Positions 29,483-30,279 of a stretch of 64,000 nt of DNA are shown piece by piece. The DNA is from Escherichia phage vB_EcoM_ASO1B. The notes below the pieces were generated by a model that saw nothing but the letters and a program-made list of their open reading frames with translations, had not been told where the DNA came from and ran no database searches. The stretch lies in the sequence record MZ726792.1; one strand, 5' to 3'. Within the stretch, counting starts at the first letter, position 1; each line of letters starts with the position of its first letter. The position numbers and the translations under genes are program-made.

Positions 29483-29725
29483 ATGCAAACATTAACAGTA
29501 GTTGAACATGAAAACTGTGAGAATATTGAGTTTGTCAGGGTCATTGGTGTTGAACACCACATTTTCTTAAAAGTAGGGTACTTATGTGACCCCGCTAGAG
29601 TAGAAAGATTTATACGTGATTGTTTTGGTGGTAGACAGCTAAAGAGTGTTATTTTTGAGACAGTTTTACCAGAAGGTTTAGAAACGAATAATAACATTTA
29701 TCTCCTTACAAGGATTAGACGATGA
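29483..29725 (+). CDS. hypothetical protein embedded in tRNA array
   Basis: 80-aa ORF, SD AAGGTG upstream. Confidence 0.4.
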   Translation: MQTLTVVEHENCENIEFVRVIGVEHHIFLKVGYLCDPARVERFIRDCFGGRQLKSVIFETVLPEGLETNNNIYLLTRIRR

Positions 29726-30279
29726 GATATTTAAAATATGCTTCATGGATTTTCCTAGCTTTGCTAGAACCATTAGCAGCAACCTTAGCAGTTATCTTAG
29801 CACCTTTCGTAGTTCCATTTTACAGTGAGAAGAAAGGCCACTTACCTTTCGGATTTAGATGGATGGAGACATATGACAACCCAATTGATGGTGACGAAGG
29901 TCATATCGAACGATGGGCTAAGATTAGAAAGATTGGTAAGCTGGGTGTCTACATGCAGAGAGTCGGATGGCTCTGGAGAAACAAAGCTTATAACTTCTCT
30001 TACCATGTATTAGGAAGAGATGTAAAAGATGTTACTAAGTGGAAAGGTAATATCAACGTAAGTTCTGACCCTGAAGATAATCAGACAGGTTATCTCCTAA
30101 TGTGGAACAGTAATGCTTGGGGATTATTCGCTTTTATCCCATCAATTAAAGTCTTTGGTAAACAATTTTACTGGAGAATTTATATTGGGTGGAAGCTAAA
30201 AAGTGTTGTCCCAGAAGAAAGAGCATTCTCAAGGGAAAGAGTTATGTTGGCATTCTTTATTCATCCACTAAGAAAGTAA
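29722..30279 (+). CDS. hypothetical membrane protein embedded in tRNA array
   Basis: 185 aa; N-terminal TM segment IFLALLEPLAATLAVILAPFVVPF; Trp-rich. Confidence 0.45.
   Translation: MRYLKYASWIFLALLEPLAATLAVILAPFVVPFYSEKKGHLPFGFRWMETYDNPIDGDEGHIERWAKIRKIGKLGVYMQRVGWLWRNKAYNFSYHVLGRDVKDVTKWKGNINVSSDPEDNQTGYLLMWNSNAWGLFAFIPSIKVFGKQFYWRIYIGWKLKSVVPEERAFSRERVMLAFFIHPLRK

Follow-up and report, generated by a model that had tools for sequence, protein, structure and literature searches.

We examined two protein-coding genes, here termed ORF1 and ORF2 (ORF, open reading frame), that lie within the tRNA gene array of Escherichia phage vB_EcoM_ASO1B, working from a stretch of 64,000 nucleotides (nt) of sequence record MZ726792.1 that we refer to throughout as the window. 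The source phage is a Felix O1-type myovirus of the genus Felixounavirus and carries 25 tRNA genes on the + strand between positions 26489 and 31640 (ARAGORN; Rfam agrees). Three protein genes break up the array, namely ORF1, ORF2 and a DUF7217 gene (30668-31465). Such interspersed protein genes are familiar from the tRNA regions of large virulent phages. An earlier sequence-only reading had described an 80-amino-acid (aa) and a 185-aa ORF flanked by tRNA genes, and both are found exactly where it placed them, on the + strand between tRNA-Arg and tRNA-Gln. The slot is made up as follows (here and below, L numbers denote loci examined).

29390 to 29465, + strand: tRNA-Arg(acg), left flank of the slot (ARAGORN, Rfam); missing in some relatives (L011 class)
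29483 to 29725, + strand: ORF1, 80 aa, ATG start; phrog_14202; optional gene for a soluble protein
29722 to 30279, + strand: ORF2, 185 aa, ATG start; DUF7338 / phrog_2143
29740 to 29820, + strand: predicted transmembrane helix of ORF2, residues 7-33, with the motif LAPFVVPF, an invariant Pro28 and an acidic residue inside the helix
29821 to 30276, + strand: C-terminal domain of ORF2, residues 34-185; basic (net +10), Trp-rich, alpha+beta, predicted periplasmic
30288 to 30363, + strand: tRNA-Gln(ttg), right flank of the slot (ARAGORN, Rfam)

Spacers of 17 nt and 8 nt separate tRNA-Arg from ORF1 and the stop codon of ORF2 from tRNA-Gln. From 29300 to 30500 the window is 100% identical to Escherichia phage vB_EcoM_ASO1A (MZ726791.1, Felixounavirus) and shares 92-99% identity with dozens of relatives. 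The ASO1A GenBank record lists ORF1 and ORF2 as hypothetical proteins, ASO1A_046 and ASO1A_047; the ASO1A paper contains nothing on either gene. With both genes deposited and annotated, the ORF2 family catalogued as a domain of unknown function and the arrangement familiar, the locus itself is already known, and the role of ORF2 is a prediction.

Two genuine genes in a variable slot of the tRNA array

ORF1 is preceded by the Shine-Dalgarno (SD)-like sequence AAGGTGA, 5 nt before its ATG, and ORF2 by AAGGA, 7 nt before its ATG; the stop codon of ORF1 and the start codon of ORF2 overlap as ATGA. Both reading frames are unbroken in all extracted relatives that carry them, and the median pairwise ratio of nonsynonymous to synonymous substitution rates (dN/dS) among distinct alleles is 0.26 for ORF1 (6 alleles) and 0.064 for ORF2 (21 alleles). 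Because they are intact in relatives, have low dN/dS and their own SD sites, and share the ATGA overlap, these comparisons mark ORF1 and ORF2 as genuine genes and not chance ORFs, and they place ORF2 under strong purifying selection. A literature search found no translation evidence for either gene.

The sequence-only reading also had the two ORFs co-transcribed with the tRNAs. Two signals bear on this idea.

27830 to 27858, + strand: best sigma-70-like promoter match near the ORFs, TTGACA-17-TATAGT, 11/12 (consensus scan only)
31803 to 31820, + strand: first clear intrinsic-terminator-like hairpin with T-run, 3' of the array, after tRNA-Cys

The MZ726791.1 record has a promoter annotated at the corresponding position, and no convincing + strand terminator was seen between the promoter match and the hairpin at 31803-31820; promoter-like sites in the region are no more numerous than expected from shuffling. 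The match at 27830-27858 is a plausible candidate for the start of a transcript carrying tRNA-Ser to tRNA-Cys plus the ORFs. Given the spacers of 8-17 nt between tRNAs and ORFs and the promoter-to-terminator layout, we infer that co-transcription is likely, and to this extent the idea holds.

The content of the slot varies. The tRNA neighbourhood is matched by 254 phage records, of which just 54 reach a coverage of 80% or more; the remainder fall into classes lacking about 237 bp (corresponding to ORF1), lacking ORF1 and tRNA-Arg, or lacking most of the region. Within the Ounavirinae the slot is found with both genes, with ORF2 only (most phages), with ORF1 only (Shigella phage Sf18) and with neither (Citrobacter phage Mordin, Salmonella phage Si3). 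Alignment of the genomes without ORF1 shows a clean junction, ORF2 beginning 19 nt past tRNA-Arg with its own SD. Sf18, a Mooglevirus, has nothing but an ORF1 homologue, which matches phrog_14202, between tRNA-Arg and tRNA-Gln; in Mordin, tRNA-Gln follows tRNA-Arg after 10 nt with no ORF between; and in Si3 both ORFs are missing, as are several tRNAs. Searches of the entire Mordin genome by tblastn and with a profile hidden Markov model (HMM) detect no DUF7338 (the window copy scores 1.9e-85). All four states of presence and absence occur between conserved flanking tRNAs, and both genes are therefore, on this comparison, dispensable accessory cassettes. The earlier reading would have taken absence from homologous arrays with conserved flanks as evidence that the ORFs are not genes; such absence does occur, in Mordin and Si3, and it establishes that the genes are dispensable, without counting against their being genes. 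The same reading's mention of mobile or host-takeover functions is apt insofar as these are accessory, evolutionarily mobile cassettes; searches of Pfam, NCBIfam, PADLOC and PHROGs found no nuclease, transposase or other mobility domain, and nothing indicates host take-over.

ORF1 matches phrog_14202 over its full length in a profile HMM comparison (E=3.6e-37, residues 1-79 on profile positions 1-75 of 76) and has no match in Pfam, NCBIfam or PADLOC (PADLOC at E<=0.1). Its AlphaFold2 model, built from 8 sequences, is poor (predicted local distance difference test score, pLDDT, 60.5), and the fold search gave no match (best E=0.21, meaningless given the poor model). Homologues of ORF1 occur in 69 phage records, in three divergence classes, and form 7 clusters in a large protein database. 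Its protein alleles are 65-100% identical, against 95-100% for ORF2 in the same genomes; compared with L014, L018, L022 and L026, the ORF1 of the window (29483-29725) shows up to 35% protein difference and a synonymous divergence (dS) of about 0.7-1.1 next to an ORF2 that is at least 95% identical. Because ORF1 alleles diverge while the neighbouring ORF2 alleles are near-identical, this pattern suggests replacement of ORF1 alleles by recombination at exactly this spot.

The ORF1-ORF2 pair is also present outside the Felix O1 group. Escherichia phage Av-05 (Avunavirus, 121 kb), an unrelated myovirus, carries inside its own 14-tRNA array a DUF7338 gene 80% identical to ORF2, preceded with a 4-nt overlap by a 76-aa ORF that has 22% identity to ORF1 and matches phrog_14202 (E=3.4e-34). 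This recurrence of the pair and of its 4-nt overlap in an unrelated phage suggests that ORF1 and ORF2 form a two-gene module.

ORF2 belongs to the DUF7338 family

The membrane protein had been thought to lack recognisable motifs, which is wrong: ORF2 is a member of DUF7338/phrog_2143, just as ORF1 is a member of phrog_14202. ORF2 matches Pfam DUF7338 (PF24027) with E=4.3e-62 and 209.4 bits against a cut-off of 27, residues 1-184 aligning with positions 1-176 of the 180-position profile, and phrog_2143 with E=1.2e-80. All DUF7338 motifs are present in it, namely an N-terminal transmembrane domain (TMD) with APFVVPF, T-x-DN-x-x-x-G-[DE], WLWRN-x-AY and GWK[LI]K. An alignment of 33 sequences spanning 26-100% identity shows T50, D52, G57, W83, W85, R86, N87, Y90, R152 and G156-W157-K158 of the soluble domain to be invariant.

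The description of ORF2 as a Trp-rich membrane protein is borne out: 10 of its 185 residues are Trp (5.4%), and it has one hydrophobic segment, residues 9-27, with a mean Kyte-Doolittle hydropathy (H) of 2.16. The N-terminus carries a charge of +2/-0, and its two positive charges are kept across the family in the 33 homologues. This family-wide charge, together with the single segment of high H, favours a predicted single-pass inner-membrane protein with N-in/C-out (type II) topology. The conserved TMD motif LAPFVVPF with its invariant Pro argues for a functional membrane segment. The AlphaFold2 model of ORF2 is confident (pLDDT 93.4; predicted template-modelling score, pTM, 0.84) and consists of a helix at residues 2-33, short helices and then a five-stranded sheet. 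A Foldseek search with this model found no neighbour in the PDB (best E=0.19, template-modelling score <0.2) and matched only uncharacterised family members among the BFVD viral models, and a profile search of PDB sequences gave just two chance matches. ORF2 likewise has no NCBIfam match and no PADLOC defence or anti-defence match at E<=0.1.

The family is large. An exhaustive profile search yields 891 clusters at 50% identity, nearly all of 160-230 aa, and DUF7338 is present in 556 phage records that include Felixounavirus, many Straboviridae genera, jumbo phages and phages of Aeromonas, Pseudomonas and Pectobacterium; homologues of ORF2, in hundreds of phages, reach down to 26% identity. Scanned with a sequence pattern, 185,579 bacterial species genomes yielded just 6 matches, one of them a phage-sized contig and two lying in prophage lysis regions. 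By these searches the family is essentially phage-borne, and its hosts are diderm bacteria wherever a host can be assigned. Some records have incongruous source names: 'Campylobacter phage A132/A126' (MG065664.1, MG065668.1) and 'Staphylococcus phage SA1' (GU169904.1) are Felixounavirus sequence with 72-99% protein identity to the window, and a 178-kb contig in a Flagellimonas marina assembly (NZ_JBHSCL010000010.1, L095) resembles a T4-like enterobacterial phage. All four probably reflect contamination or mislabelling.

DUF7338 beside lysis genes and a proposed role for ORF2

In other phages, mainly smaller ones and prophages, DUF7338 genes recur within lysis cassettes or where tail-fibre and lysis genes meet, in a range of gene orders.

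L110-113: Phage_holin_2, lysozyme, DUF2570 (Rz), LysC (Rz1), DUF7338 (49% identity to ORF2), 79-aa protein, 202-aa protein, terminase
L069/70/72/73: two-TMD protein, DUF7338, Amidase_2 or Amidase_3; start and stop codons overlap
L062, L078: DUF7338, GTA_holin_3TM, GH108
L058: DUF7338, short TMD-coiled-coil protein, signal-anchor-release (SAR) lysozyme
L114/115: tail fibre, 193-aa protein, DUF7338, 96-aa protein, GH108, Rz
L116: Gly-rich tail fibre, 149-aa protein, DUF7338, coiled-coil protein, Peptidase_M15_4
Aeromonas phage PX29: tail-fibre assembly gene, DUF7338, lysozyme, TMD-coiled-coil protein; upstream of asiA
Amantichitinum prophage: tail-fibre assembly gene, DUF7338, 96-aa protein, three-TMD protein, SLT-like protein, Rz/Rz1
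Selenomonadaceae prophage: TMD protein, DUF7338, multi-TMD protein, YkuD-like protein, coiled-coil protein

L110-113 is the most revealing: there the canonical lysis functions of holin, endolysin and spanin are already provided by other genes, and DUF7338 abuts the cassette. The two-TMD protein of L069/70/72/73 has no Pfam match and is holin-like by size, TMD count and position only, and the PX29 slot upstream of asiA is the one held by holin t in T4. Distant DUF7338 homologues adjoin seven unrelated endolysin types in all, and in Mosigvirus AV109 the DUF7338 gene lies directly next to rI. By rough estimate, DUF7338 is adjacent to a lysis cassette in about 10 of about 24 non-redundant lineages, which, as roughly, is several-fold above expectation for a random gene; the adjacency is enriched and not universal. 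A protein with a TMD and a coiled coil adjoins DUF7338 in PX29, L058, L088, L073, L100 and L116; a crude count showed no significant enrichment (3/161 vs 4/461), and the co-occurrence is anecdotal. The window has lysis genes of its own.

5332 to 5842, + strand: overlapping i-spanin (5332-5679) and o-spanin (5573-5842); phrog_1152, Rz-like, E=8e-42; Mordin annotation
21232 to 21696, - strand: endolysin (phage lysozyme)
55255 to 55626, + strand: rival holin candidate, 123 aa, N-terminal TMD plus coiled coil, phrog_4038; directly after the tail-fibre genes

Because other phages carry DUF7338 in the lysis gene cluster, we favour an envelope or lysis role for ORF2, which probably acts on the cell envelope and not on tRNAs. 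Tentatively, we propose that ORF2 is an accessory, inner-membrane-anchored, periplasm-facing lysis factor, that ORF1 is an optional soluble companion, and that both are carried as cargo in the variable slot between tRNA-Arg and tRNA-Gln of the Felixounavirus tRNA operon. The two genes would probably share a polycistronic transcript with the tRNAs, and tRNA processing would make the message ends. The transmembrane helix of ORF2 would hold the basic, Trp-rich domain, whose predicted fold is without a solved relative, in the periplasm. From there the protein could modulate the timing or manner of envelope breakage by the holin/endolysin/spanin system, in the way of an antiholin or lysis regulator; it would not itself be the primary holin and would have no direct part in tRNA biology. 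ORF1, sometimes translationally coupled to DUF7338, may be a cytoplasmic partner of ORF2.

Two known systems offer models for such a function. Like the T4 antiholin RI, ORF2 combines an N-terminal hydrophobic segment with a (predicted) periplasmic domain and would be an accessory timer of lysis beside a separate holin, and in AV109 the two genes are neighbours. A separate holin in the same phage or cassette, as an RI-like antiholin would need, is found in several settings (GTA_holin_3TM, Phage_holin_2 and, here, the 55255-55626 candidate), though not universally. ORF2 differs from RI in having no homology to it, in being twice as large and in its strongly hydrophobic TMD, as against a typical, weakly hydrophobic SAR domain. 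The phiKZ proteins gp142 and gp143, a class IIIb holin and a cytoplasmic lysis regulator (PMC12894885), resemble ORF2 and ORF1 in pairing a single-TMD lysis protein with an adjacent small soluble protein, and are a possible analogy for the pair; however, the large domain of gp142 is cytoplasmic, there is no sequence relationship, and ORF1 and ORF2 each occur alone.

Several observations weigh against this proposal. DUF7338 lies away from lysis genes in some 14 other lineages, its settings there including a tail/baseplate module (L079-87), replication regions (L109, L063-68), jumbo phages and neighbourhoods that are uninformative. In the window, distances of 8 kb, 24 kb and 25 kb separate ORF2 from the lysin, the spanins and the holin candidate, respectively. 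Polar residues are strongly conserved, in a manner that recalls an enzyme or a specific binder more than a typical lysis regulator, and an obligate partnership is weakened by the occurrence of ORF1 and ORF2 each without the other. Literature searches found no Felixounavirus transcriptome and, under DUF7338, PF24027, the phrog identifiers and the protein accessions, no paper naming the family. Finally, superinfection-exclusion morons are also classically found where tail-fibre genes meet lysis genes, so that this synteny fits a function in exclusion as well.

Exclusion or envelope protection is the main rival to a lysis factor, and we consider it unlikely. ORF2 would then block the DNA entry or tail lysozyme of later phages, in the manner of T4 Imm or Sp, and ORF1 would be unrelated cargo. 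T4 Imm and Sp are early membrane or periplasmic superinfection-immunity proteins encoded in non-essential regions, and ORF2 resembles them as a small, envelope-located accessory protein of a virulent myovirus. The patchy distribution of an accessory gene, its linkage to tRNA genes and in some lineages to replication genes (which fits expression before the late genes), and its confinement to diderm-host phages wherever the host is assignable all suit such a function. DUF7338 often comes immediately after tail-fibre or tail-fibre-assembly genes, a position in which Cor/Llp-type exclusion genes also occur, and its conserved TMD could target a host membrane channel. However, ORF2 has no homology to Imm or Sp, and searches of Pfam, PHROGs, PADLOC and, by profile, PDB sequences do not relate it to any of the known Sie, Imm or Sp proteins. 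Imm and Sp are also not found in lysis cassettes, as DUF7338 often is: at L069-73 it sits, with overlapping start and stop codons, between the holin-like protein and the endolysin, and at L110-113 it abuts Rz1, and late lysis operons are an odd place for exclusion genes. Exclusion genes are, moreover, usually commonest in prophages, where DUF7338 is rare.

A lysis protein of another kind would be the phage's primary holin, of class III but unrelated in sequence to T4 gpt, making the inner-membrane hole that releases the soluble lysozyme. This we judge improbable for ORF2, even though database annotation raises it directly. Some records call ORF2 a holin, and its homologue in phage Mushroom (95.7% identity) is labelled 'holin', while many records give the label holin or putative holin to the 55255-55626 gene, which is hypothetical in others, including those of ASO1A and Mushroom; vB_Si_35FD labels both genes holin, so that public labels conflict, with both genes bearing the name in at least one record. 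The question has some weight, since the Felix O1 group is a classic one in Salmonella typing and biocontrol; the Felix O1 paper named no holin and listed other candidates, including gp79 (PMC3185647). In the window we found no membrane-protein gene adjoining the lysin. ORF2 is predicted to resemble T4 gpt (a class III holin, Phage_holin_T) in its short cytoplasmic N-terminus, single TMD and large periplasmic domain, a topology favoured by the one hydrophobic segment and by the positive N-terminus that 33 homologues share, and is of similar size; both genes are unlinked to the endolysin in a large virulent myovirus, and the PX29 homologue occupies the t slot beside the lysozyme. All known class III holins of gpt-like topology were close homologues of T4 gpt according to PMC12894885, and ORF2 as a holin would thus represent a new family.

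The comparative evidence points the other way. DUF7338 is absent from the whole Mordin genome and from the slot in Sf18 and Si3, and Mordin keeps the same lysozyme, the spanins and its own annotated holin gene. That gene, Mordin_56 (124 aa), is called holin in a record from the Texas A&M CPT, also the annotator of Mushroom, and its homologue in the window is 55255-55626, a core gene found in 260 Ounavirinae records, those of Mordin-type phages and Si3 among them. ORF2, by contrast, is accessory and not essential to its lineage. Its homologues coexist with GTA_holin_3TM and Phage_holin_2 and, among T4-like phages, occur in genomes with rI next door. No Pfam holin family, Phage_holin_T included, is matched at E<=1, ORF2 has no sequence or fold similarity to gpt, and no PDB fold match falls below E=0.19 in a copy of the database whose inclusion of T4 T-holin structures was not checked. 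Polar residues that stay invariant across 26-100% identity are atypical of holins and resemble enzyme-like conservation. A primary holin is unlikely because ORF2 is dispensable, coexists with holins, shows no holin similarity and is conserved in an enzyme-like way; the 'holin' label on ORF2 is weakly supported. We resolve the conflict of labels by regarding 55255-55626 as the better holin candidate for the phage group, with DUF7338 as an accessory gene.

Other lysis functions were considered for ORF2 and rejected. The hydrophobic segment (H=2.16) is too hydrophobic for a typical SAR domain, which speaks against a releasable helix. The alpha+beta model with its five-strand sheet has no coiled coil, contrary to an i-spanin role; a spanin role is further disfavoured by the window's own Rz-like pair (5332-5842) and by L110, which has Rz/Rz1 besides DUF7338. 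ORFs nested in ORF2 (29825-30013 and 30189-30287) show no lipobox by eye.

The association of DUF7338 with tRNA genes also extends well beyond the window. In 22 of 24 T4-like loci (L032-L051, L055, L056, L095 and L002) the gene follows same-strand tRNA genes at a distance of no more than 1.1 kb, the linkage holding from tRNA-Met alone (the tRNA most often involved) to sets of 18-19 tRNAs, DUF7338 then lying inside the array as it does in Felixounavirus and Avunavirus; in an unrelated lineage at 33% identity (L063/66/68) the tRNAs end 17-270 nt before it. At about 30 further distant loci no tRNA gene lies within 5 kb. The linkage is thus real across the loci compared and not universal, and we have not seen it noted before across several unrelated phage lineages. 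This breadth distinguishes it from the protein ORFs of T4- and T5-like tRNA regions, which are otherwise comparable to the three ORFs that interrupt the array here. A tie of ORF2 and/or ORF1 to the tRNAs themselves, for instance in countering tRNA-targeting host defences or regulating tRNA processing, is nevertheless very improbable. Such a function is disfavoured because ORF2 is a membrane protein whose soluble domain is predicted to be periplasmic; searches of Pfam, NCBIfam and PADLOC reveal no RNA-binding or nuclease signatures, and the tRNA array is retained in Mordin and Si3, from which the gene is missing. Piggy-back expression from tRNA promoters and exchange of cassettes in hyperplastic regions would explain the linkage equally well, and that is how we read it.

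Scarcely credible, finally, is the idea that the ORFs are a selfish mobile element (a homing endonuclease cassette, say) or host-takeover proteins: clean variation in presence and absence at one fixed site flanked by conserved tRNAs, ORF1 alleles that look exchanged by recombination beside a near-constant ORF2, and free-standing HNH and GIY-YIG endonucleases elsewhere in the genome would suit it, but Pfam, PHROGs, NCBIfam and PADLOC searches find no HNH, GIY-YIG, LAGLIDADG, integrase or transposase domain in either protein, ORF2 is under strong purifying selection and persists as a membrane protein in many phage families at 26-60% identity, and no junction repeats are visible in the alignment, no dedicated repeat search having been made.

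The lysis-factor proposal can be extended to the family as a whole, at the price of becoming rather unlikely. DUF7338 would then represent a widespread and structurally novel class of lysis-control proteins that face the periplasm, in phages infecting diderm bacteria, acting as a holin partner or antiholin or in an unrecognised fourth or fifth lysis function, with phrog_14202 as a cytoplasmic cofactor in some phages. The cassette would have moved from the lysis cluster into the tRNA operons of large virulent myoviruses, where flanking tRNAs would give it expression and a route of exchange between unrelated phages. The double association of DUF7338 with tRNA operons and lysis cassettes is mildly interesting in itself, and a large family with a confident predicted fold, no solved relative and recurrent placement in lysis cassettes makes a tractable target in the search for an additional lysis or envelope function.

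Neighbouring genes and other features of the array

The third protein gene of the array, 30668-31465 (annotated start 30731), lies between tRNA-Phe and tRNA-Ser(gct) and encodes a DUF7217 / phrog_2114 coiled-coil protein with weak tape-measure-like and ZorA-like matches. Unlike ORF1 and ORF2 it is retained in Mordin, Sf18 and Si3, and the Sf18 record labels it 'hypothetical receptor-binding protein'. Directly 5' of the tRNA array, a 471-aa gene (24908-26323) matches a Mordin gene annotated vWA + DUF2828. From its position alone, it is probably the counterpart of the gene directly upstream of the Bas63 tRNA genes whose product, gp130, has been described as Ro60-like and as a possible partner of Y-RNA-like 'tRNAs' (PMC11482910).

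Gaps in the array at 27152-27580, 27815-28384 and 28474-28728 could accommodate non-tRNA RNAs. An extra tRNA-like element at 28063-28141 scores 31.7 bits in Rfam against a threshold of 29 and is missed by ARAGORN; in Mordin and Sf18 a tRNA-Arg gene (anticodon TCT in Sf18) lies at a comparable position, a few hundred bases 5' of tRNA-Ser(tga). Rfam also gives sub-threshold tmRNA-like matches at 27756-28061, and Felix O1 encodes a tmRNA according to the Mushroom paper. From about 21696-22829 on, the coordinates of the window run 243 bp ahead of those of MZ726791.1 (21702-22586). The Ig-like 'tail protein' beside the lysin has 377 aa here, with three Ig-like repeats of about 81 aa, and 294 aa in MZ726791.1, so that the two sequences differ at this protein by one repeat unit.

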